DNA from: a virus
Lineage: Duplodnaviria; Heunggongvirae; Uroviricota; Caudoviricetes
Virus record (IMG/VR): IMGVR_UViG_2531839454_000024
Reading direction: 5' to 3' (one strand)
DNA length: 10,205 bases
A program made the translations under genes and the position numbers. The stretch's first letter is position 1. The number at the start of each line of letters is the position of its first letter. Below, one piece after another: positions 1,009 to 10,205 of this stretch. The notes beneath the pieces are model-generated. The model was given only the letters and a program-made list of their open reading frames with translations, made no database searches and was not told where the DNA came from.

Positions 1009-1083
1009 GTCCTCTTAGTTAAATGGATATAACGAGCCCCTCCTAAGGGCTAATTGCAGGTTCGATTCCTGCAGGGGACACTT
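1009..1083 (+). tRNA. argW: tRNA-Arg (anticodon CCU)
   Basis: Cloverleaf readable by eye: acceptor GTCCTCT / AGGGGAC, anticodon loop CTCCTAA with CCT anticodon, T-arm GCAGG-TTCGATT-CCTGC. Sequence ends ...GGGGACAC then TT (1082-1083) rather than CCA, so only the first C of the 3' CCA is encoded. Confidence 0.9.
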
Positions 1084-1256
1084 TAAAGACCTTTCTCTAC
1101 ATTTCACTTCATTACATAACCACTTAAAAAAAACAGTAAGTTATCACCGAATCGGCCTGATTTTCATTTCAGTTAATTTCATGACATTACAACCTCGTGA
1201 TGGTATAAGTGATGGTATTCCCCAGTTCGATATGCAGATACCATCAATTTACCAAA

Positions 1257-2543
1257 ATGAGTACAGATATGGCCATTAATGTGCTTTCCCCCAAACAGAT
1301 AGAAAACGCCAAGCCGAAGACCAATGATTACAAACTTACCGATGGAGGGAGTTTGTATCTACTGGTACGAAAGACTGGTGGAAAATACTGGCGTATGAAT
1401 TATCGTTTTGATGGAAAACAAGTGACATTGGCATTAGGGGTCTACCCAGATGTCTCACTTGCAACAGCGCGGAAACGGCGTGATGAAGCCAGGCAACTAC
1501 TAGCCGATGGCCGTGATCCTCGCGAAGCAAAGAAACCCAAAAAGGAAGACCCAATTTCCCCCACGTTCGAGAGTGTTGCCAGAGAGTGGCATAGTGGAAC
1601 GATGGGGCATCCTGAGTGGAAAGAGATCACCCGTAAAAAAATTCTCCGAGAAATGGAAAACCACCTCTTTCCTGCCATCGGTTCAAAGCCTATCGATACG
1701 CTCAAAACCCGTGACTTGATGCCGATGCTGGTTGAGATGACTGAGAAAGGAATTGGTGCCACAACGAGCCGGGTAAAAACCACTATGACGAGCATCTTCC
1801 GTTATGCCGTGCAACGTGGAATTGTCGATTACAACCCTGCCCACGATCTAAAAGGTGCAATTACGGCCCCCAAAGTACGACATCGCCCCGCACTACCTCT
1901 CGAACGTTTACCTGAACTGTTAGCGAAAACGAGAAGTTACACGGGAAGACCATTGACTCGCCTAGCAGTTCTCTTTTCCCTGCACACTTTTGTGCGATCC
2001 AGCGAACTACGACATGCCAGATGGGAGGAGATCGACATTGAAAATGGGCTATGGACGATACCAGGACAACGTGAAGAGATCGCAGGGGTTAAATTCTCAG
2101 ATCGGGGTGCAAAGATGGGGGCTGCTCATTATGTCCCGCTATCTAGTCAGGCTATCGGGGTACTGGAGGATATAAGGAAAATCAGTGGTGAATATCTGCT
2201 GGTTTTCCCCGGTGACAGCAACCCATATAAACCGATGAGCGAAAACACAGTTAATAAAGCACTGCGAACGATGGGTTACGACACTCAAACTGATGTATGC
2301 TTACATGGGTTCAGGGCGATGGCCTGCTCTGCACTGACCGAATCAGGACTCTGGTCACGCGATGCAGTTGAACGGCAGATGAGTCACCAAGAAAGAAACG
2401 AAGTGCGGGCAGCATATGTGCATCTTGCGCAGCACATGCAGGAACGCCGCAGAATGATGCAATGGTGGTCTAATTATCTGGAACTAAATAAGGACGAATT
2501 TCATGCTCCTTATGACTTATCAGGTATTAACATTATCAATTAA
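1257..2543 (+). CDS. int: P4-type tyrosine integrase (site-specific recombinase, tRNA-targeting)
   Basis: N-terminal arm-binding-type motif (KQIENAKPK...YKLTDGGSLYLLV...KYWRMNYRF...TLALGVYPDVSLATARKRRDEAR) typical of P4 Int. C-terminal catalytic region has HGFRAMA and a terminal AAYVHL tyrosine. Start is uncertain: ATG 1257 or ATG 1269; the 1209 GTG extension in the ORF track is unlikely. Sits directly 3' of a tRNA gene, as is usual for this family. Confidence 0.9.
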   Translation: MSTDMAINVLSPKQIENAKPKTNDYKLTDGGSLYLLVRKTGGKYWRMNYRFDGKQVTLALGVYPDVSLATARKRRDEARQLLADGRDPREAKKPKKEDPISPTFESVAREWHSGTMGHPEWKEITRKKILREMENHLFPAIGSKPIDTLKTRDLMPMLVEMTEKGIGATTSRVKTTMTSIFRYAVQRGIVDYNPAHDLKGAITAPKVRHRPALPLERLPELLAKTRSYTGRPLTRLAVLFSLHTFVRSSELRHARWEEIDIENGLWTIPGQREEIAGVKFSDRGAKMGAAHYVPLSSQAIGVLEDIRKISGEYLLVFPGDSNPYKPMSENTVNKALRTMGYDTQTDVCLHGFRAMACSALTESGLWSRDAVERQMSHQERNEVRAAYVHLAQHMQERRRMMQWWSNYLELNKDEFHAPYDLSGINIIN

Positions 2544-2573: not shown

Positions 2574-3455
2574 ATGCAGCATTCAACAGAGAATGAAACT
2601 ATATTCTTAGGAAATCTATGGATTGACAAAAAAATACCACCATTAGAATATTGTTCATTTGAACGCGCTTCAAGACTATTAGAATGCGAGATTGATGATT
2701 TATTACACCTATACGAAATAGGCGCTTTTAATATCGCATTCAAGGCGGATGGACTTGCAGTTAGATTTAATGTTAATTTCCTCAATAAAAATCAGAAAGT
2801 GGAAATTGACTTAATTCATCCCGTATTAACTAATCAATCACTAGAGATGGAATTTTCAACAATATGGTATGACCTTAAAGATGATTCCTTTGAACATTTT
2901 GAAAATGGGCTTCAAATTATAGGATTTGCCTGTGGTATTTGGTACGCCGATGATATGATAAGTGACATAAAAAATGGATTAGCTATAGATCCAGATTATG
3001 AATTCAGGCTTAAACCGGTAAAAATACGAGATAATGTTTTGATGGCAACGGCCTCATATGAAGGAAATAAGGTCATTGATATTCCATTTGAAGATCTTCT
3101 TATCATGCGAAGAGATTTAGAGTTAATATGGAAATCAGTAAAAACTGGAATTCCTATGCCAAGTTTACTTACGAAAAGAATTTCATCTGAACCTAAAATC
3201 CCCAAGCGATTAAATAACACTGCTGAGCATCATGCAAAAAATAGGGAGGGGTTATTAAATGCAGCCATATATATATTAGCAAAATACCCAAGCGAATGTC
3301 GTGGTGAAAGAAAAGAGATAAGTCCTGAAAAGTGGACTAACGCCATAATTAAACATTTAGGAGAGCTACCTCCAATATTTATCACTAATGAACAAGAAAT
3401 CTTAAGAAAATTACGATTAGCGGTTAATCATGCGGGATTAAAACAAAAGGGGTAG
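2574..3455 (+). CDS. Hypothetical protein, 293 aa, no family recognised; AT-rich orphan cargo gene
   Basis: Clean ORF with a strong SD 5 nt upstream. Markedly lower G+C than its neighbours (about one third by hand count of four 60-nt samples). No TM helices and no motif I can assign. Confidence 0.8.
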   Translation: MQHSTENETIFLGNLWIDKKIPPLEYCSFERASRLLECEIDDLLHLYEIGAFNIAFKADGLAVRFNVNFLNKNQKVEIDLIHPVLTNQSLEMEFSTIWYDLKDDSFEHFENGLQIIGFACGIWYADDMISDIKNGLAIDPDYEFRLKPVKIRDNVLMATASYEGNKVIDIPFEDLLIMRRDLELIWKSVKTGIPMPSLLTKRISSEPKIPKRLNNTAEHHAKNREGLLNAAIYILAKYPSECRGERKEISPEKWTNAIIKHLGELPPIFITNEQEILRKLRLAVNHAGLKQKG

Positions 3456-3557: not shown

Positions 3558-3773
3558 ATGACATTAAAAACTTATCCTATCACTGGACATGCCCGCCCAC
3601 GAGCTACTGCTGACTTTTTGCAAATAAGTACGGTTACTCTCTGGCGCTGGGAAAAGAACAATCCTGAATTTCCCAAATCTATACGCATTTCAAAACGGGT
3701 ATCTGTTTACGATGCACAAGAAATTAGGCAGTGGGTTAAAGCTCAATCAGCAGGATTGGAGGAAGTAGTGTAA
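3558..3773 (+). CDS. alpA: AlpA-family phage transcriptional regulator (excisionase-like HTH)
   Basis: 71-aa protein with the Phage_AlpA-type pattern FLQISTVTLWRWEKNNPEFPKSIRIS...VYDAQEIRQWV. Located downstream of a P4-type int, as in CP4-57-type islands. Confidence 0.85.
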   Translation: MTLKTYPITGHARPRATADFLQISTVTLWRWEKNNPEFPKSIRISKRVSVYDAQEIRQWVKAQSAGLEEVV

Positions 3774-3822: not shown

Positions 3823-4017
3823 TCAATTCTTTGGTTCTAAACCTCGGCTTTGTAACTCTTTGCGTAGAATGCGCTTGATCCAAGCCGCTAGCGATTCATC
3901 GCCATCCTGCTGTTGTGCTTGTTCCATCAGTTCACGCAGTTCAGGGTCAAGTCGGAACTGGAATGGCGGATTCCCACGTCTTTCATTTTTGTGTGTTGAC
4001 ACGTCAATTACACCCAT
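3823..4017 (-). CDS. Small ribbon-helix-helix (Arc/CopG-like) DNA-binding protein, putative satellite repressor
   Basis: 64-aa ORF. PPFQFRLDPELRELMEQ...SLAAWIKRILRKEL fits a beta-strand plus two-helix RHH pattern. Divergent from the downstream replication operon. No clear SD, so the start is uncertain. Confidence 0.55.
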   Translation of the reverse strand: MGVIDVSTHKNERRGNPPFQFRLDPELRELMEQAQQQDGDESLAAWIKRILRKELQSRGLEPKN

Positions 4018-4051
4018 TGTAATGTATTTATGTGTAATGACACATTACACA
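3996..4051 (+). promoter_or_regulatory. Candidate promoter and operator for the replication operon
   Basis: TTGACA 3996-4001, 16-bp spacer, TGTAAT 4018-4023. Directly downstream is a perfect palindrome TGTGTAATG-ACA-CATTACACA (arms 4031-4039 and 4043-4051). Confidence 0.4.
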
Positions 4052-4133
4052 CAGAAAAACAAAATAGCAACGCCCCGGAGTGTTTGCAGCAGCACCGAGG
4101 CGTCTGACCAGCACGTTATATGAGGTAACGAAG

Positions 4134-4310
4134 ATGGCTAAACAGAAGTGTACCTGGTTATTTGCGGCGATCAACCGCAGTCAACGTAATGCCCGTCCGG
4201 TGATGTTAAGGATCACCGCAGATAACGAACGATCAGCGCGGCGCAGACTTGCCCCGGACTATGTACTGAGCTTTGCCGGGCGCATTCCCTGCGGAGGGGA
4301 ACATGCGTAA
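4134..4310 (+). CDS. Icd-like small protein (host cell division inhibitor Icd-like family), tentative
   Basis: 58 aa from ATG 4134 with SD GAGG 4122-4125. The sequence KCTWLFAAINRS...PVMLRITADNERSARRRLAPDYVLSFAGRIP matches my recollection of the Icd-like family common in P4-like elements. The GTG 4080 extension was rejected. Confidence 0.5.
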   Translation: MAKQKCTWLFAAINRSQRNARPVMLRITADNERSARRRLAPDYVLSFAGRIPCGGEHA

Positions 4311-4693: not shown

Positions 4694-4978
4694 ATGAATA
4701 TTTCAAACGGGCACAACGGTGCTCAGGGCCACACTTTGCCTGAAAAACACAATACCGGTGCTTTTGCCTATGGGTTGTCAGAGGACAGTTTCGGAAAGCT
4801 GACCCGCGCAAAAAATGCCTGCGACATGCTCCAGCTTCTCTTTTCTGAATACCCGTCTCAGGCCGGAGCACTGGACGCTGGCTGTGCGCATGGTGTCGCC
4901 GCGCTGATGGAGTACCTGCTGGCAGATTTGACGGATATTGCACACAGCTGCGCACTGATTGAAGGAGGTGCCAGATGA
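4694..4978 (+). CDS. Hypothetical protein, 94 aa
   Basis: ATG 4694 preceded by GGAG (4681-4684). Its stop overlaps the next start (ATGA at 4975-4978). Confidence 0.6.
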   Translation: MNISNGHNGAQGHTLPEKHNTGAFAYGLSEDSFGKLTRAKNACDMLQLLFSEYPSQAGALDAGCAHGVAALMEYLLADLTDIAHSCALIEGGAR

Positions 4979-5358
4979 ACCAGCCGCAGGTTTCCATTTT
5001 CCCGGCAGAAATGACCACCGCGCTTTACCGGCGGGCTATTGCTTCAGCATGGCGGCAGAAAATGCTGAACGAAACTGGTAGTGATCAGTATGGTCCGCAC
5101 AGCCTGACGGTGGAGCGTATTGAAATGGCCATTGCGCTGCATATCGAGTGCGTACTGATTAACGAGTACGGCGAAGTGCAGGGCGCCGCTGCCGCGCTGG
5201 CACTGCTGACTGACATGCTGGAGCCATCACTGCTGACCGCGCCGCCGGTACTGACCGCGCGCGGCTGTGAAGTGATGGCGGAGATGTACCGCACGCTTCC
5301 GGCGGCCTTTGATGACTTCTGCAGTACCGGTGTGACGTTGTATGAGGGGGAAGTATGA
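4975..5358 (+). CDS. Hypothetical protein, 127 aa
   Basis: Translationally coupled on both sides (ATGA overlaps at 4975-4978 and 5355-5358). SD-like GAAGGAGG upstream. Confidence 0.6.
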   Translation: MNQPQVSIFPAEMTTALYRRAIASAWRQKMLNETGSDQYGPHSLTVERIEMAIALHIECVLINEYGEVQGAAAALALLTDMLEPSLLTAPPVLTARGCEVMAEMYRTLPAAFDDFCSTGVTLYEGEV

Positions 5359-8027
5359 CAATACAGACGGTTACGCAGATTTCAGCCGCCGCACGGGGGA
5401 AATGGCCCGTTATTCTGCAGATGCTGCGTATTGATGTACCTGAAAACGGCAGGCACGGCCCCTGCCCGAAATGTGGGGGCAAGGATCGTTTTCGCCTTGA
5501 TGACCTTGACGGGCGCGGGACGTGGATCTGCAGCCAGTGTGGCAATGGTGACGGTCTGGATCTGGTTAAGCTCGTAACCGGTTACAGCGTCAGAAAGGCT
5601 GCGCAGGAGGTGGCGCAGGTGCTTAATGTGCCGGATGTGCAGGAACTGCCTGTTAAGCCTGCCAGACAAAAAGCCCCTAAACGCGACATGGGTCTTACCG
5701 TGGCGGCGCTGATGAAAGAGAGCCACACGGGAGAAAGCGCCTATCTGACAGGAAAAGGGTTCGCCGGATACCCGGCCTCTCTGACCGGAAGCGTGCAGCA
5801 TATCAGCGGTAAGGATTTTCCTGCCGGTTCCCTGCTGTTACCACTCACGACCAACACCGGAGCCGTGACCGGTGCACAGCTTATCGCCCCGACGGGTGAA
5901 AAAAGCATACTGCCCGGCAGCACGATGAAAGGCGCGTTTGTGTCGCTCAGCCCGTTACCGTCTGAACCACCGGTACAGGTGGTGATTACCGAAGGTTACG
6001 CTACGGCGCTGACGGTAAGCCAGCTCACTGCCGGATGCGTAGTGGCTGCCATATCTGCGGGCAACCTGCCCAATGTGGCGCAGTCGCTGCGGGCACGCTG
6101 GCCTGAGGTAAAAATTATCATCGCCGGTGATAACGATTTTCAGGACGGGGGGGAGAATCCCGGCAGAGCCTTTGCTGAACGGGCGGCAAAAGCTGTTGGC
6201 GGCTGGATGACGCTGCCACCAGGAGAGATTAAGGCTGACTGGAATGACTTTCATCGGGAGCACGGTATTACCCGTGCCCGTGAAGCCTTTCGCAACGGTC
6301 TGGTACTGTGCGGGGAAGGCCGCACGCAACTGCCGCACGGGTTCCGTCTTACCCAGGAATATCTCTGGTATGAAAAGCAGGTACAGCGCAACGGTGAGAC
6401 GGAGATCCAGAACGTCAAAATATGCAGCCCGCTGCGCGTGACGGCAATCACCTGCGATGCCGATGGCGGTAACTTCGGACGACTGCTGGAATGGGAAGAT
6501 ACGTGGGGTGAGTGTCGCCGCTGGGCGATGCCGATGGAAATGCTGAGCGGCAGTGGTGAGGAACTGCGCCGGGTACTGCTGGTTAACGGGCTGTCTTATA
6601 TCAGCACCACCGGTGAGGCACGCGCACGCCTGATGGAATATATCTCACTGTGTAAACCGGAACGCCGCGTGACCTGCGTCAGTCGTACTGGCTGGCATGG
6701 TCAGGTTTACGTCCTGCAGGATGAGGTCAGCGGTGAAGGTGCAGAGGGTGTCATTCTCCAGACCACTTCCGTGCAGGGGCGTGATTTCCGCGTGTCGGGC
6801 ACAACAGAGGAATGGCGGGAGCATGTATCCCGCTACTGTACCGGCAACTCCCGCGTGGCATTTGCTGTCAGCCTGGCCTTTGCTGCACCACTGTTACGGC
6901 TGGTTGGTATGGACGGCGGCGGCTACCACCTAAAAGGGGAATCGACAGACGGTAAGACCACCACCATGAAAGCGGCAACCTCCGTCTGCGGCGGGCCTGA
7001 CTACTGGCAGACATGGCGGGCCACCGGCAACGCGCTGGAGGGATGCGCCAGCCGCCGCAACGATGCCGCCATGATGCTTGATGAGATCCGGGAAGTTGAC
7101 GGACGCGAGGCAGGCAATATCGCCTACATGCTGGCAAACGGTCAGGGCAAGGGCCGTGCCGGTACGGACGGTGAGCTGCGTACCCGTAAGCAGTGGCGCC
7201 TGTTGTTCTTTTCAACTGGCGAGTTGTCTCTGACCGAACATGCGGCAAAGGCCGGTGAGCGTACTTTTGCCGGGATGGAAGTCAGGATGATCCAGATCCC
7301 AAGCGATTCCGGGAAGTTTGGCGTTTTTGAGGAGCTGCACGGCTTCGACAGCGGCAAGGCTCTGGCAGAGCATCTTGAATGGGCCACGTCCTGCTACTAC
7401 GGTTCGCCGTTCCGGGAGTGGCTGAAAGCACTGACCGCTGATCTTAACGGACTAACGGCACAGGCAAAATCGCTGATGAAGGAATATGCTGCCGCCCTGA
7501 CTCCTAAAGATGCAGGCAATCAGGTGGGCCGGGCTGTGAACCGCTTTGCACTGGTGGCGATGGCAGGTGAACTGGCAACCCGTCTGGGTATCACCGGCTG
7601 GCCTGAGGGTGAAGCACTGCGGGCAACCCGCGTCTGCCTGAACGCATGGCTGAAAGATCGCGGGCACACCGCCAATCAGGAAGATATCGCCGCACTGGAG
7701 CAGGTTCGCAGTTTCTTTACCGCGAATCAGTACAGCCGCTTTGCAGACTGGTATGACGAGCGCAACCGCCCCGGCAATATGGTGGGCTGGCGCAGGGTGG
7801 AGAAAGGCAGTACCGCGCAGGGCACGGAAGCTGTCACTACGTTCTATGTCATGCCGTCCGGCTGGAAAGAAATCTGCAGGGGATTTGACCCGCGTAAGGT
7901 GGCGCGTCTGTGCGCAGATCGTGGATACCTGCTGCCCTCCACTGATGGCAAACTCCAGACAACCATTCGCCCGCCAGAGATGAATCCCCGCAGGCTCTAT
8001 GTCTTCAACAGCGAGGTGCCGGGTTAA
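5355..8027 (+). CDS. Primase-helicase, P4 alpha-like (zinc-ribbon + TOPRIM + P-loop NTPase, DUF927-type)
   Basis: 890 aa. N-terminal CPKCGG...CSQCG zinc ribbon; TOPRIM-like ITEGYATALTV and IIAGDND; Walker A GESTDGKTT and Walker B-like MMLDEI. Iteron array lies immediately downstream. Confidence 0.9.
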   Translation: MTIQTVTQISAAARGKWPVILQMLRIDVPENGRHGPCPKCGGKDRFRLDDLDGRGTWICSQCGNGDGLDLVKLVTGYSVRKAAQEVAQVLNVPDVQELPVKPARQKAPKRDMGLTVAALMKESHTGESAYLTGKGFAGYPASLTGSVQHISGKDFPAGSLLLPLTTNTGAVTGAQLIAPTGEKSILPGSTMKGAFVSLSPLPSEPPVQVVITEGYATALTVSQLTAGCVVAAISAGNLPNVAQSLRARWPEVKIIIAGDNDFQDGGENPGRAFAERAAKAVGGWMTLPPGEIKADWNDFHREHGITRAREAFRNGLVLCGEGRTQLPHGFRLTQEYLWYEKQVQRNGETEIQNVKICSPLRVTAITCDADGGNFGRLLEWEDTWGECRRWAMPMEMLSGSGEELRRVLLVNGLSYISTTGEARARLMEYISLCKPERRVTCVSRTGWHGQVYVLQDEVSGEGAEGVILQTTSVQGRDFRVSGTTEEWREHVSRYCTGNSRVAFAVSLAFAAPLLRLVGMDGGGYHLKGESTDGKTTTMKAATSVCGGPDYWQTWRATGNALEGCASRRNDAAMMLDEIREVDGREAGNIAYMLANGQGKGRAGTDGELRTRKQWRLLFFSTGELSLTEHAAKAGERTFAGMEVRMIQIPSDSGKFGVFEELHGFDSGKALAEHLEWATSCYYGSPFREWLKALTADLNGLTAQAKSLMKEYAAALTPKDAGNQVGRAVNRFALVAMAGELATRLGITGWPEGEALRATRVCLNAWLKDRGHTANQEDIAALEQVRSFFTANQYSRFADWYDERNRPGNMVGWRRVEKGSTAQGTEAVTTFYVMPSGWKEICRGFDPRKVARLCADRGYLLPSTDGKLQTTIRPPEMNPRRLYVFNSEVPG

Positions 8028-8061
8028 GGCTTTGCGTGAGTCTTATTTATTAAGGGTAACA

Positions 8062-8249
8062 GGTGAAACAGGTGGAACAACCGTATTTTACAGGGCTGAA
8101 CCTGTTCCACCTTCTGAAATAGTGAGGTGGAACAGATGTAACGCCAGCCAATCCGCTGTTCCACCTTGTTACCCGCGATGTTCCACCGGTGCAGTGTATA
8201 TAAATGCTTTATAAAACAAAGCAGTAACACATGTTTCACCTGTTCCACC
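8062..8249. repeat. Iteron array, probable satellite replication origin
   Basis: Eight copies of the 9-mer TGTT(C/T)CACC. Plus orientation at 8103-8111, 8157-8165, 8179-8187, 8232-8240, 8241-8249; minus orientation at 8062-8070, 8071-8079, 8126-8134. Tandem pairs at both ends in opposite orientation. AT-rich stretch 8194-8231 sits between clusters. Confidence 0.6.
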
Positions 8250-8337
8250 GCATCAGGGACATAAAGCAGACTGAAACAGAGGGTATTTTTATCTGGCTGG
8301 CTTTCATAGCCACGTCTGAATAACCGCAAGCGTCCGT

Positions 8338-8393
8338 TGTGCCAGCCACCACACACTGAGCACCGATAGTGTGCTTGTGTCAGCCACGACACA
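8338..8393 (+). promoter_or_regulatory. Psid-like late promoter with two Ogr/Delta-type TGT-N12-ACA dyads
   Basis: TGT-N12-ACA at 8338-8355 and again at 8376-8393, centres 38 bp apart. ATG 8428 with SD AGGAG 8418-8422. Spacing is compatible with activator sites near -55 and -18 relative to a start around 8400. Confidence 0.5.
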
Positions 8394-8427
8394 ATTGACG
8401 TAACGAACCAACCCGACAGGAGAAGTC

Positions 8428-9171
8428 ATGAACAACACCGCAGTGAATAACAACCTTTCCACTTTTCCGGCTGTAACGCAGCGGGCACTGGAAACCATGA
8501 ACACAGCCAGAAACGCATGGCTTGAAGCACGTCGTCAGCAGAAAGCGGCAGCGGATAATATTGCGACAATCCGCCAGCGTCGCGCTGAAATGGAAGCCAC
8601 GACGAACACACTGAATGAGGAGTGGCGCACGCTGTTTCGTGAAAGTCAGGGCGTGGTCTCAAAGGAAATGAAAAAACTGCGCACGGAAATTGCGCTGGGA
8701 CGAGAAACGCTTGAGGATTTTGATGAGCTGCTGGCGGCTCAGGAAAGCGAAAATGCACTTTTGCCGCAGAAAGCTGCGGAATTAGCCGGAAAGTATATCC
8801 ACGCGCATAACATTCTTGTGGATATTCGCGCAAAACAAATCTGGGAAGATTTTATGCAGTCGCATGGAAAAGCGCTTATTCAGACGCTGAGCCTGCTTAA
8901 ATCCACAATGGGCCGGGAAGCCAGTGCCGTTGTGGGTGTGGTGAATTCAGTTAATGACCCGGACACAGTGCTGAAAGACTTTATTCATAAACATATCACC
9001 AGACCGGCTCTGGCTAACGATGCGATGCCTGAACAGGACCCGGTGTTTAAACTGGCGGGAGTTGCCCCGGATTATGCGGCGCGTCTGGATTTCAGTAATC
9101 AACTCTCTCCGGCAGCTATGCATAAAATAAAGGTTCGTCAGGAACTTGCTGAGAAGGAGAAAGCTGTATGA
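8428..9171 (+). CDS. Sid/Psu-family protein, probable capsid size determination (Sid-like) protein
   Basis: 247 aa (P4 Sid is about 244 aa). Helical, A/E/K/R/Q-rich. Contains WEDFMQSHGKAL, the same motif class as the next gene's SNFMQANGAAL. Sits behind the late promoter. Confidence 0.45.
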   Translation: MNNTAVNNNLSTFPAVTQRALETMNTARNAWLEARRQQKAAADNIATIRQRRAEMEATTNTLNEEWRTLFRESQGVVSKEMKKLRTEIALGRETLEDFDELLAAQESENALLPQKAAELAGKYIHAHNILVDIRAKQIWEDFMQSHGKALIQTLSLLKSTMGREASAVVGVVNSVNDPDTVLKDFIHKHITRPALANDAMPEQDPVFKLAGVAPDYAARLDFSNQLSPAAMHKIKVRQELAEKEKAV

Positions 9172-9719
9172 CGGCCCGAGGCACACCTGACCAGGCACTT
9201 ACCAGTTTTCGGAATGCCCGTATTCTGTGGGCCGGACATAGTGAGACCCGAAAAGCCGTTGAACAACAGATAGCATCTCTCCTCGCTGCCACAGAAAAAC
9301 CAACAGATTATGCCCGACAGCTCGAATTACTGCGGGAACGTCTGGATGTGCTGAAATGGCAAATTAACTGTGCTGCTCGCGAATGCATTTACTCGCAGCA
9401 TTTATTGATGGAGGCCTGCACTGAAGCTGCTCTCAGCAATTTTATGCAGGCGAATGGGGCAGCCCTGACATCTGCACTGGCTCCGTTCCTGAAGGGGCGC
9501 GGAGGGGTTGACGTTGCGTCCCGTATATTACGCAGTGCTCTGGTTCGCCAGCTGGCAATAACACCGCCTGAAATTGCCGGGGATTATCGTGAGATCCTGG
9601 ATGAATCCGGTTTGATGCCAGACCCCGGGATGATTCGTGATTGCCAGGGCTCTTACACCCCGGCACAACATCTGCGTTTTCAGCAACGCCTGAATGACAT
9701 TAACGATATACAGGAGTGA
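9168..9719 (+). CDS. psu: Psu-like polarity suppression protein
   Basis: 183 aa (P4 Psu is about 190 aa). Motifs KWQINCAARECI, FMQANGAALTSALAP and YTPAQ match my recollection of P4 Psu. Start ATGA overlaps the upstream stop. Followed by an Ogr/Delta-like gene. Confidence 0.6.
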   Translation: MTARGTPDQALTSFRNARILWAGHSETRKAVEQQIASLLAATEKPTDYARQLELLRERLDVLKWQINCAARECIYSQHLLMEACTEAALSNFMQANGAALTSALAPFLKGRGGVDVASRILRSALVRQLAITPPEIAGDYREILDESGLMPDPGMIRDCQGSYTPAQHLRFQQRLNDINDIQE

Positions 9720-9724
9720 TATTA

Positions 9725-9848
9725 ATGGCACTTAAATGTCCGGAATGCGGTACAGTTGCACACGCCAGAACAGCAGCCTATGAAGCTCCGTCAGTTAAAC
9801 GCTCGTGGTATCAGTGCCAGAATCTGGAATGTTCCTGCACATTTACGG
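9725..9848 (+). pseudogene. Ogr/Delta-like zinc-finger late-gene activator, truncated by IS66-family insertion
   Basis: MALKCPECGTVAHARTAAYEAPSVKRSWYQCQNLECSCTF aligns to the P2 Ogr pattern C-x2-C...HARTS...QCQN..C. Homology stops near codon 42, where the IS end GTAAGCG begins (9849). SD CAGGAG 9711-9716. Confidence 0.7.
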
Positions 9849-10205
9849 GTAAGCGACTCGTCAGAACCGTATTGATATTTACTGAGAGCTCAGATCAACT
9901 TTCCAGGGCAACAGATCGCGTACCCGGTTTGCCGGCCAATCCTGGATATGTTCAATGACGTAACGCAGCCACTTTTCTGGCTCCACATTGTTCAGACGGC
10001 ATGTGCCGATCAGCGAGTACAACACCGCCGCATGTTCACCACCGCTGTCGGAACCCGCGAACATCCAGTTTTTCCGGCCTACGGCCACTCCCCGTAAGGC
10101 GTTCTCTGCGATGTTGTTGTCGATTTCCACCCAGCCATTACTGCAGTACACGTTCAGTGCATCCCACTGTTTCAGCAGGTATGCGAACGCTTTTGCCGTA
10201 TCTGA
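9849..10205 (-). mobile_element. IS66-family insertion sequence, right-hand end only (continues past window edge)
   Basis: Terminus begins GTAAGCG at 9849-9855, typical of IS66-family ends. Carries the C-terminal part of an IS66-type transposase on the minus strand. Confidence 0.8.
9879..10205 (-). CDS. IS66-family transposase (TnpC), C-terminal fragment, 5' end outside window
   Basis: Minus-strand frame is open to the window edge. Translation ...AFAYLLKQWDALNVYCSNGWVEIDNNIAENALRGVAVGRKNWMFAGSDSGGEHAAVLYSLIGTCRLNNVEPEKWLRYVIEHIQDW... is the conserved IS66 transposase C-terminus. Stop TAA at 9879-9881. Confidence 0.85.
   Translation of the reverse strand, partial: SDTAKAFAYLLKQWDALNVYCSNGWVEIDNNIAENALRGVAVGRKNWMFAGSDSGGEHAAVLYSLIGTCRLNNVEPEKWLRYVIEHIQDWPANRVRDLLPWKVDLSSQ

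Follow-up and report, generated by a model that had tools for sequence, protein, structure and literature searches.

Sid and Psu orthologues in a predicted late operon of a P4-like satellite at tRNA-Arg(CCU) of Escherichia coli

RESULTS

The window carries a P4-like satellite with a chimeric replicase

In the window (the whole stretch of 10,205 nucleotides that was analysed), genes for Integrase, AlpA, Sid, Psu and Delta are co-localised, with a tRNA-Arg gene at the element border (Table 1). All the genes are co-directional except one small ORF, and the yfdC/tRNA-Arg/integrase junction recurs in E. coli genomes. The element as a whole is a satellite of the P4-like kind, integrated at tRNA-Arg in E. 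coli.

Table 1. Features of the window, with positions counted from its first nucleotide
Feature	Position	Strand	Evidence or remark
tRNA-Arg (anticodon CCU), satellite integration site, attL side	1009..1081	+	ARAGORN; Rfam tRNA 63.4 bits
P4-type tyrosine integrase	1209..2543	+	Pfam Arm-DNA-bind_3, Phage_int_M, Phage_integrase; phmmer vs P4 Int 461 bits
AlpA-family regulator/excisionase	3558..3773	+	Pfam PF05930, E 1.6e-7
DUF5375 protein, P4 orf106 homologue	4975..5358	+	Pfam PF17345, E 2.4e-13; phmmer vs P4 orf106 48 bits
Chimeric Toprim-DUF927 replicase	5355..8027	+	Pfam Zn_Ribbon_Prim, Toprim_3, DUF927
Six GGTGGAAC(A) iterons, putative replication origin	8071..8249	both	6 matches vs 0.26 expected
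Upstream Ogr/Delta-type dyad TGTGCCAGCCACCACACA, sid promoter	8338..8355	+	72 nt before ATG; kept in 20/20 related loci
Downstream Ogr/Delta-type dyad TGTGTCAGCCACGACACA, sid promoter	8376..8393	+	34 nt before ATG; kept in all related loci
sid orthologue, predicted external capsid-size scaffold, 247 aa	8428..9171	+	PDB 7jw1_E match, AF2/Foldseek, phrog_6165
WEDFMQSHGKAL motif in Sid-like protein, aa 139-150	8842..8877	+	G147 aligned to P4 Sid Cys140
psu orthologue, predicted capsid decoration protein and Rho inhibitor, 183 aa	9168..9719	+	Pfam PF07455, PDB 3rx6
SNFMQANGAAL motif in Psu-like protein, aa 90-100	9435..9467	+	Aligned to P4 Psu D87-L96
delta 5' part, single-domain Ogr/Delta zinc finger, truncated after ~codon 41	9726..9848	+	Pfam PF04606, E 3e-13
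ISCro1 (IS66-family) end splitting delta, continues past window	9849..10205	-	Homology and NZ_CP025856 annotation

The replicase is a composite protein. Its residues 5-316 form a P4-alpha-like Zn-ribbon/Toprim primase domain, to which the BLASTP similarity to P4 alpha (38% identity) is restricted, and DUF927 replaces the D5-type helicase; Pox_D5, D5_N and DUF5906 are absent from it in a Pfam search in which the positive control, P4 alpha, matches all three. The window ORFs likewise gave no match to the epsilon/derepression family, either with Pfam or with phmmer using P4 epsilon, which as positive control for that family scored 167.9 bits. Since there is no match to the epsilon or alpha (PF03288) profiles, the element would score as Type C var01. 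An Rfam scan of the window returned the tRNA alone, with no known P4-type immunity RNA family, and PADLOC gave no match for a low-GC 293-aa ORF, the Sid-like protein or the Psu-like protein. Two details of layout recall P4: the DUF5375 gene lies directly 5' of the primase gene, as orf106 does, and the iterons, a putative replication origin by analogy, lie just upstream of the late promoter, as the P4 ori type-I repeat GGTGAACA lies just upstream of Psid.

The late genes follow a predicted promoter with P4 geometry

The initial annotation had read the late genes in the order Sid-like, Psu-like, Delta-like, all co-directional with the primase, and this layout holds: the third ORF is of the Ogr/Delta type, and all three genes lie on the plus strand together with the primase gene. 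In P4 the late operon is divergent from the alpha operon, whereas in the window it is downstream of the primase. The sid-like and psu-like ORFs overlap by ATGA, and the same 4-nt overlap occurs at the end of sid in P4.

The Sid-like ORF is the first gene behind a predicted Psid-type, Ogr/Delta-type promoter with two TGT-N12-ACA dyads 38 bp apart, and the spacing of the dyads to the sid ATG is identical to that in P4. Delta sites in the sid promoter are placed at -55 and -18. Across 20 loci, with hosts from E. coli through to Pantoea and Erwinia, the dyad pair is conserved; besides P4, 18 loci of other species show it in near-identical form. A generic scan of positions 7900-10205 for sigma-70 promoters and terminators stayed at background.

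The 247-aa protein is a Sid orthologue

Annotated as a 'septation initiation protein', the 247-aa protein is really Sid. With phmmer, its residues 12-230 match residues 5-222 of P4 Sid (7jw1_E, E 5.9e-10; ~22% identity); it matches phrog_6165 at E 9e-93, and its family profile aligns with that of P4-type Sid over 231 columns (hhalign, E 1.3e-28). The AF2 model (pLDDT 87.2; helices 15-72, 79-108, 112-167, 178-196 and 228-246) superposes as a predicted monomer on 7jw1_E with TM 0.74/0.77 over 235 columns in Foldseek, compared with TM 0.46/0.59 for Psu and no other hits below E 0.5. The model thus agrees with the Sid fold, i.e. an elongated all-alpha protein with a ~100 A coiled-coil stem, a region that forms the dimer knot and, at the C terminus, a helix that binds the capsid. 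The gene is under purifying selection (dN/dS 0.17 vs the Salmonella copy). A tblastn search of 50,697 phage records (E 1e-5) with the Sid-like protein found no match; its divergence from P4 Sid is too great for BLAST, so HMM and fold searches are needed. NCBIfam holds no real match for the Sid-like protein, the Psu-like protein, P4 Sid or a third paralogue that is described below.

The 183-aa protein keeps most of the Rho contacts of Psu

Against Pfam PF07455 (cut-off 27.4) the 183-aa protein reaches 151.5 bits, with residues 8-178 covering profile positions 2-180, and matches the structure of P4 Psu (PDB 3rx6) at E 8e-14 and 28-30% identity. Its AF2 model (pLDDT 90) superposes as a monomer on 3rx6 with TM 0.85/0.83 and rmsd 2.2 A over 183 columns in Foldseek, in keeping with the predicted Psu fold of a short stem, a knotted-dimer core and a C-terminal helix alpha7. 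The dN/dS of psu vs the Salmonella copy is 0.22. The comparison of both proteins with P4 Sid and Psu that the initial annotation had proposed is therefore significant in each case, by sequence as well as by predicted fold.

The initial annotation had also held that the paralogue with anti-Rho activity could not be told from sequence, and here we disagree: the 183-aa protein is a full-length Psu that keeps most of the Rho contacts. P4 Psu contacts Rho through R43, D49, E56, P171, A172, Q173, M175, R179, K180 and Q183 (PMC11718236). Eight of these ten positions are identical or conservatively replaced in the Psu-like protein, with R43/D49/E56/P171/A172/Q173/M175/K180 corresponding to K44/E53/D60/P165/A166/Q167/L169/R174, and two are changed (R179 to Q, Q183 to D). 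The P-A-Q...K/R contacts of helix alpha7 are thus retained along with K44/E53/D60. By orthology it is reasonably evident that the 183-aa protein would be the Rho antagonist.

Could the 247-aa protein be a second Psu-type protein, acting as Rho antagonist and/or decoration rather than as a size-determining scaffold? It passes the gathering threshold of Pfam Psu (37.8 vs 27.4 bits, profile positions 61-176, E 1.8e-9), which blurs the functional boundary between Sid and Psu, whereas P4 Sid has no Pfam match whatever. It also contains an FMQxHGxAL block of the Psu type, the TPAQ with which the helix starts in Psu has its counterpart in SPAA, and PGAP labels some copies Psu ('phage polarity suppression protein'). 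We nevertheless consider this reading very unlikely. Sid is the best full-length match by E-value (8e-5 for Psu) as well as by the TM-scores given above. A ~55-residue insertion relative to Psu extends the stem to the length of the Sid stem, which would shift the stem tip away from the Rho-contacting geometry of Psu; Gln173 is replaced by Ala in this protein, as in most of the Sid-like family, where the position is near-invariant; and the gene occupies the sid position right behind the Psid-type promoter.

A shared motif connects the Sid and Psu families

In agreement with what the initial annotation had noticed, the coordinates and translations place a (D/N)FMQx(H/N)GxAL block in both proteins. 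In the same alignment column P4 Psu has DFMQQHGTAL, located at the end of helix alpha2. Among Sid-like homologues (to 40% identity) W139, F142 and L150 never vary and M143 and G147 hardly do, while F92, M93, G97 and L100 are invariant among Psu homologues including P4 Psu. The two proteins are paralogues, as had been claimed: BLASTP aligns them at E 2e-4 over 121 aa, and the family profiles align over 168 columns with hhalign (probability 95.6%, E 1.3e-8), in both cases with the motifs in register. Chance or low complexity could conceivably produce such a match between helical proteins of separate origin, since these two are all-alpha and contain many A, L, Q and E residues. The significant in-register alignments, the invariance or near-invariance of the motif in both families and its recurrence in the same column of P4 Psu and the third paralogue refute this explanation, which we regard as vanishingly improbable. 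Sequence similarity of Sid and Psu had been mentioned in the initial annotation, and their homology has been in print since 2020 (PMC7552001).

Every Psu has the motif, as do the window Sid lineage and the third paralogue, whereas it is missing from all of the 18 P4-type Sid representatives compared; P4 Sid has ALNETCEAL where the window Sid has the Psu-type FMQxHGxAL block. From this sequence comparison, the block is the apparent relic of a Sid/Psu ancestor. Its glycine (G147 in the Sid-like protein, G97 in the Psu-like protein and G93 in P4 Psu) aligns with C140 of P4 Sid, through which the dimer knot is cross-linked (PMC7552001). We infer that the motif may mark the bend between the stem helix and the dimerisation helices, i.e. 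the stem/dimer-knot junction. The AF2 monomer of the Sid-like protein has one unbroken helix across the motif (H112-167), and hence this reading rests on the alignment with the P4 structure and not on the model. The motif gains a concrete structural interpretation, as the point at the dimer axis where the stem would pass into the knot.

Psu is much nearer to the window Sid clade than to P4-type Sid: against the Psu profile, hhalign gives E 1.5e-14 for the former and 6.4e-4 for the latter. A rough neighbour-joining tree (Poisson distances, since Kimura distances are undefined at such divergence; 200 bootstraps) places the window Sid clade on a shorter branch from the Psu root than P4-type Sid. 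The lineage thus connects Sid and Psu by plain sequence methods, and its proximity to the Psu profile makes it better suited to tracing how one gene gave rise to both a capsid scaffold and a Rho inhibitor.

Related loci share the late module and differ in the replication genes

P4 has the order sid-delta-psu (NC_001609), just as the initial annotation had stated, and the window has sid-psu-delta. The difference it had pointed out is real; it is, however, not peculiar to the window, as a psu/delta swap is known from ~20% of P4-like elements (PMC8628076). Several related loci encode a third, Sid-derived paralogue of ~270 aa 3' of delta. Duplication followed by differential loss was considered as the origin of the swap and rejected: the post-delta paralogue nests in the Sid clade, not in Psu, and so does not explain the swap. 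Among the 20 loci bearing the window Sid lineage, psu is absent from 11.

The psu-less loci raise the possibility that window-type Sid is less specialised and partly bifunctional, combining the scaffold role with Psu-like decoration or anti-Rho activity, so that Psu would be dispensable in the lineage, an idea put forward for psu-less elements before (PMC8628076; PMC10085698). The proximity of the clade to Psu, in profile comparison and in branch length, points the same way. Against this, psu is present and intact in the window and under purifying selection, which argues that it is still needed, and the Rho-contacting Gln is missing from the Sid-like protein; we judge the bifunctional reading improbable.

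The loci L010, L012, L013 and L015-L020 (Pantoea, Erwinia, Mixta, Scandinavium) carry Sid of the window clade with the FMQ motif, and share with the window lineage the sid-(psu)-delta order, the dyad pair and a cos-like block, with the third Sid paralogue following delta in some. In these loci, unlike in the window, a genuine alpha of the P4 type is transcribed, together with orf106, cI and vis, divergently from sid, which is the P4 arrangement. One late module thus stands on two different replication backbones, which amounts to modular exchange in satellites.

In P4, iterons lie just upstream and cos just downstream of the late operon; in the uninterrupted relatives, a conserved block that can be aligned with the P4 cos region lies 130-230 nt 3' of the last late gene. 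This block was found by comparing the regions 3' of delta across loci; the window ends inside the insertion sequence, short of them. The relatives lack the exact 19-nt cos core of P2/P4, and short-word blastn with the P4 core as well as a search at <=4 mismatches returned nothing convincing. Given that the core is missing from the relatives, the helper may not be P2 itself.

ISCro1 splits delta in the window copy

The match to uninterrupted copies ends at position 9848, and GTAAGCG begins at the next nucleotide. The annotation of NZ_CP025856 continues from the 5' part of delta through IS66 tnpC/tnpB/tnpA to the 3' part of delta. Uninterrupted copies encode 90 aa (e.g. locus L001), so that Delta of the window lineage is a single Ogr-like domain, compared with 166 aa for P4 Delta. 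The zinc finger (CX2CX22CX4C, as defined for Ogr/Delta in PMC3931495) is intact, with C5, C8, C31 and C36 all upstream of the junction. As delta is split, self-activation of the satellite may be lost in the window strain.

This raises the question of whether the module in the window strain is a crippled remnant, with the satellite inactivated by ISCro1 and sid and psu no longer in use. PGAP marks both halves of delta as partial pseudogenes, ISCro1 brings ~2.6 kb of extra DNA, and the junction occurs in only 3 genomes, compared with ~300 that have the uninterrupted module. On the other side, neither the sid nor the psu ORF is damaged and both are 100% identical to those of uninterrupted copies, the four zinc-finger cysteines are spared, the insertion seems recent and, by what is known of P4 biology, Ogr of a helper could still activate the dyads. 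On balance we find the remnant explanation rather unlikely, although it deserves more weight than the other alternatives considered here.

DISCUSSION

Positions 8338-9848 very probably form a late operon for helper exploitation, carried by a P4-like satellite that is integrated at tRNA-Arg(CCU) of E. coli. The capsid-hijacking module of a divergent P4-like lineage that the initial annotation had proposed is borne out by the homology to P4 Sid and Psu, the predicted folds and the satellite context. While the homologies, folds, promoter geometry, motif distribution and purifying selection are read from sequences and models, the functions assigned to the proteins are transferred from P4, and it is from this analogy that we infer capsid redirection and Rho inhibition. 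By the P4 model, Ogr of a P2-like helper, or Delta of the satellite, would bind the TGT-N12-ACA dyads and switch on sid-psu-delta. The Sid orthologue would form dimers via the knot-like interface and trimers via the long coiled-coil stem, and would cage the hexamers of the helper capsid into a small shell with room only for the ~10-kb satellite. The Psu orthologue would decorate and stabilise the small capsid, and would inhibit the termination factor Rho via its stem tip and C-terminal helix. Delta, with its single Ogr-like zinc finger, would feed back on the late promoters; it is this gene that ISCro1 splits in the window copy.

The P4 late operon Psid-sid-delta-psu (NC_001609; Sid 7JW1, Psu 3RX6/8PEU) encodes the same three protein families, and its Sid and Psu folds superpose on the window predictions at TM 0.74-0.85. 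P4-like elements as delimited by Moura de Sousa & Rocha with SatelliteFinder, on a seven-marker definition, are ~9-10 kb long and comprise a tRNA integrase, AlpA, Sid, Psu and Delta (PMC8628076, PMC10085698). The window element has the same set with the integrase at a tRNA, and differs by its Toprim-DUF927 replicase and near-complete gene co-direction. The same surveys mention early-branching Psu/Sid clades in E. coli and Salmonella as well as 'Type C' subfamilies; the organisation of the window is not explicitly described in them (PMC8628076, PMC10085698). The window lineage is deep-branching and already catalogued. The result confirms that an island common in E. coli, at argW, is a P4-like satellite, and leaves the overall picture mostly unchanged.

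A more speculative possibility, and in our estimate a long shot, is that the window Sid clade stands near the unduplicated Sid/Psu ancestor and keeps a dual activity, as scaffold and in decoration and/or Rho binding, by means of a Psu-like tight dimer formed on the FMQxHGxAL junction. Such an ancestral Sid would explain both the loss of psu in more than half of the loci and the ~270-aa Sid-derived paralogue, and, if it existed, the external cage in this lineage would be built from two or three components, unlike that of P4. As Pfam Psu matches both the Sid-like and the Psu-like protein, counts based on that family may, for this lineage, include the same kind of gene twice or assign genes wrongly.

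The two late proteins and their shared motif

The initial annotation described two tandem ORFs sharing an FMQ motif and read them as the capsid-hijacking module of a divergent P4-like lineage. The coordinates and sequences it gives are correct (see table). A third ORF, after the psu-like one, encodes an Ogr/Delta zinc finger (PF04606, E 3e-13), and all three are co-directional with the 890-aa primase. The interpretation also stands; since Sid and Psu were described as homologues in 2020 (17% identity, HHpred E 9e-35; PMC7552001), a phylogeny of the two together, with E. coli and Salmonella clades branching early, followed in 2021 and psu-less variants are already known (PMC10085698), it is correct but known biology, that of a catalogued, uncharacterised sub-lineage. 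Our analysis adds the assignment of the Sid and Psu roles, a structural interpretation of the motif, the finding that Psid geometry is exactly conserved, the bridging position of the window-type Sid clade (the Sid lineage of the window) and a naming trap in Pfam and PGAP.

Among solved structures, the 247-aa protein is closest in sequence to P4 Sid (7jw1_E, E 5.9e-10, residues 12-230 against 5-222), followed by P4 Psu over the C-terminal half only (E 8e-5). Its AlphaFold2 model, made with 22 homologues (pLDDT 87.2, pTM 0.71), consists of helices throughout and has a long hairpin stem; Foldseek matches it to Sid (TM 0.74/0.77 over 235 columns) and Psu (TM 0.46/0.59), and returns nothing else below E 0.5. 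The 183-aa protein is a full-length Psu: it scores 151.5 bits against Pfam PF07455 and E 8e-14 against the Psu structure 3rx6, on which its model (pLDDT 90) superposes with a TM of 0.85 and an rmsd of 2.2 Å. Compared with a copy of the element from Salmonella, both genes are under purifying selection (dN/dS 0.17 in sid and 0.22 in psu; 0.04 in the primase).

P4 Sid has no Pfam match, and the window Sid lies above the Psu gathering threshold at 37.8 bits. Because the Pfam Psu model matches both paralogues, Psu-based censuses may miscount in the window-type lineage. The 247-aa product goes under two names in RefSeq/PGAP, many genomes having 'septation initiation protein' and others 'phage polarity suppression protein'; no NCBIfam match supports either.

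The motif is more than a chance resemblance, on four counts. BLASTP aligns the two proteins at E 2e-4 (22% identity, 121 residues) with the motifs in register, and hhalign of profiles from homologues of both gives a probability of 95.6% and E 1.3e-8 over 168 columns, spanning nearly all of the 183-aa protein with a ~55-residue insertion in the 247-aa protein. At identities down to 40%, the Sid-like family never varies at W139, F142 or L150 and hardly at M143 or G147. F92, M93, G97 and L100 are invariant across the Psu family, including P4 Psu, whose DFMQQHGTAL falls in the same column.

The stem of P4 Sid is made up of residues 11-137 and its dimer interface, interlocked like a knot, of residues 139-189, with Cys140 disulfide-linked over the twofold axis (PMC7552001); helix alpha2 of Psu comprises residues 45-91 (PMC11718236). 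Since the motif glycine (G147 in the Sid-like protein, G97 in the Psu-like protein, G93 in P4 Psu) aligns exactly on Sid Cys140, the motif probably forms the turn that joins the stem to the dimerisation region, at the dimer axis. The AlphaFold2 monomer model of the 247-aa protein runs one unbroken helix across the motif, and the turn reading therefore relies on alignment to the experimental structures.

Family relations

Only 87 relatives emerged from an exhaustive profile search covering 1.84 billion representative proteins. When full-length relatives were sorted by best reference and scored for F[MFL]xxxGxxL, the motif was present in every Psu (P4-type and window-type), in a third paralogue and in every window-type Sid except one (P0110), and in none of the P4-type Sid proteins of the sorted set. 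The third paralogue, a Sid/Psu-superfamily protein of 269-303 aa, lies directly 3' of delta in 8/20 related loci, where P4 has psu, and carries the form DFFxx(N/H)GxEL. It is missing from the window element, Pfam gives nothing above threshold for it, and the papers we read contain no description of it.

In profile comparisons, window-type Sid matches the third paralogue at E 1.3e-36, P4-type Sid at E 1.3e-28 and Psu at E 1.5e-14; P4-type Sid matches Psu at E 6.4e-4. A rough NJ tree (200 bootstraps) recovers Psu and P4-type Sid as clades at 100% each, and a further clade, at 79.5%, in which the third paralogue nests within window-type Sid. Measured from the Psu root, window-type Sid sits on a shorter branch than P4-type Sid. 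These comparisons place the window-type Sid clade in a bridging position between Sid and Psu. Given its distribution and the tree, the motif is ancestral; among the examined sequences it is missing only in the P4-type Sid line.

Predicted Rho antagonism

The initial annotation held that the anti-Rho paralogue is not evident from sequence; orthology does offer a prediction, naming the 183-aa protein as the Rho antagonist. Rho-Psu contacts in a cryo-EM study are R43, D49, E56, P171, A172, Q173, M175, R179, K180 and Q183, with the P-A-Q and K/R contacts picked out as conserved (PMC11718236). Their equivalents in the 183-aa protein are K44, E53, D60, P165, A166, Q167, L169, Q173, R174 and D177; eight of the ten are identical or conservative, the conserved P-A-Q and K/R contacts among them. 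The 247-aa protein has SPAA where Psu has TPAQ, and because its stem is ~55 residues longer, it should not reproduce the tip-plus-helix-alpha7 geometry of Psu.

Gene order, promoter and replication module

P4 has sid-delta-psu, divergent from the alpha operon, whereas in the window sid-psu-delta follows the primase in the same direction, as the initial annotation recognised when it called the order unlike that of P4. A psu/delta swap has been reported in ~20% of P4-like elements (PMC8628076), which makes this aspect nothing new. All 20 loci with window-type Sid have the order sid-(psu)-delta, on two backbones: the co-directional Toprim-DUF927 arrangement (11/20, window counted) and a P4-type left arm (vis, cI, orf106) divergent from sid (9/20). 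P4-type alpha is present in eight of these nine and was not found in L010. The window-type Sid lineage occurs with genuine P4-type alpha in Pantoea and Erwinia. Since the same late module sits on both, it is exchangeable between replication backbones. In 11/20 loci (L004-L009, L011, L012, L017-L019) psu is absent, and delta directly follows sid, overlapping it or within ~90 nt.

Residues 5-316 of the window replicase are 38% identical to the P4 alpha primase domain, EGYATA included, and the remainder is DUF927, not D5_N, DUF5906 or Pox_D5. The protein is thus a chimera with only its N-terminal primase third in common with P4 alpha.

Two TGT-N12-ACA dyads precede sid at exactly the distances found in P4, whose own two lie 72 and 34 nt before sid. 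With a spacing of 38-39 bp and a distance of 32-36 nt to the ATG, the pair is present in 20/20 loci examined (Escherichia, Shigella, Enterobacter, Citrobacter, Pantoea, Mixta, Scandinavium and Erwinia), and the inner 12 nt differ among lineages. In work ascribed to Julien and Calendar and to Reiter et al., the Psid sites protected by P4 Delta reportedly lie near -55 and -18. Ogr-dependent late promoters have TGT-N12-ACA as their consensus (PMC3931495).

Between the primase stop and this promoter lie six GGTGGAAC(A) iterons, against 0.26 expected. Each exceeds the P4 ori type-I repeat GGTGAACA, likewise upstream of Psid, by one base, and because of this resemblance the region is probably the replication origin. 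In uninterrupted relatives the last late gene is followed, at 130-230 nt, by a cos-like block that aligns with the P4 cos region and is kept in all related loci (…AAGCGGGCAGGCGTG…CGCGC… in L001, which has an uninterrupted delta). The 19-nt P2/P4 cos core is not in this block, where the core differs, a hint that the cos of the helper is a different one.

Coordinates of the features discussed (window positions unless a related locus is named)
Feature	Position	Strand	Remarks
Low-GC ORF	2574-3455		293 aa; 32-35% GC; between integrase and alpA
Small Arc-like ORF	3823-4017	opposite	phrog_228, E 8.5e-6
Icd/Kil-like ORF	4080-4310		homologue of P4 ORF annotated 'cI' (41 bits)
Primase (replicase)	5355-8027		890 aa
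Iterons	8071-8249	both	putative origin
Dyad I	8338-8355		72 nt before sid ATG
Dyad II	8376-8393		34 nt before sid ATG
sid-like ORF	8428-9171	+	247 aa; overlaps psu-like ORF
Motif WEDFMQSHGKAL	8842-8877		residues 139-150 of 247-aa protein
psu-like ORF	9168-9719	+	183 aa
Motif SNFMQANGAAL	9435-9467		residues 90-100 of 183-aa protein
ISCro1	9849-10205; L021:10852-13467		IS66-family
cos-like block	L001:14140-14195		outside window, beyond IS
Third paralogue	L005:6194-7105; L007:10955-11866; L011:11017-11841; L012:11017-11841; L013:11580-12389; L014:11583-12395; L018:11089-11901; L019:11089-11901

Layout and occurrence of the element

The window runs from yfdC through tRNA-Arg(CCU), integrase, the low-GC ORF, alpA, the opposite-strand Arc-like ORF, the Icd/Kil-like ORF, two ORFs of unknown function, DUF5375 (a P4 orf106 homologue) and the primase to the late operon. 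The element is P4-like, but of the seven markers used to define such elements it lacks two, namely epsilon, which has no detectable homologue in it, and the D5-type helicase of P4 alpha. In published terms it would be 'Type C var01' (PMC8628076, PMC10085698). Rfam found no known immunity RNA family near the Icd/Kil-like and Arc-like ORFs (3823-4310). The low-GC ORF, which has no Pfam or PADLOC match, is possibly cargo at an integrase-proximal hotspot; homologues occupy the equivalent position in L014 and in a Salmonella locus (L022).

At least 80% of 8028-9958 is carried by 306 of 5,426 E. coli genomes, three of which match it identically, IS junction included. An uninterrupted delta codes for 90 aa, and a SEC-C/YecA-type gene and then dsdC come after it. 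In the window, ISCro1 cuts delta after about codon 41; the uninterrupted module is found in about 300 E. coli genomes, and the identical junction in only three complete ones (CP025856, CP024278 and LR882997).
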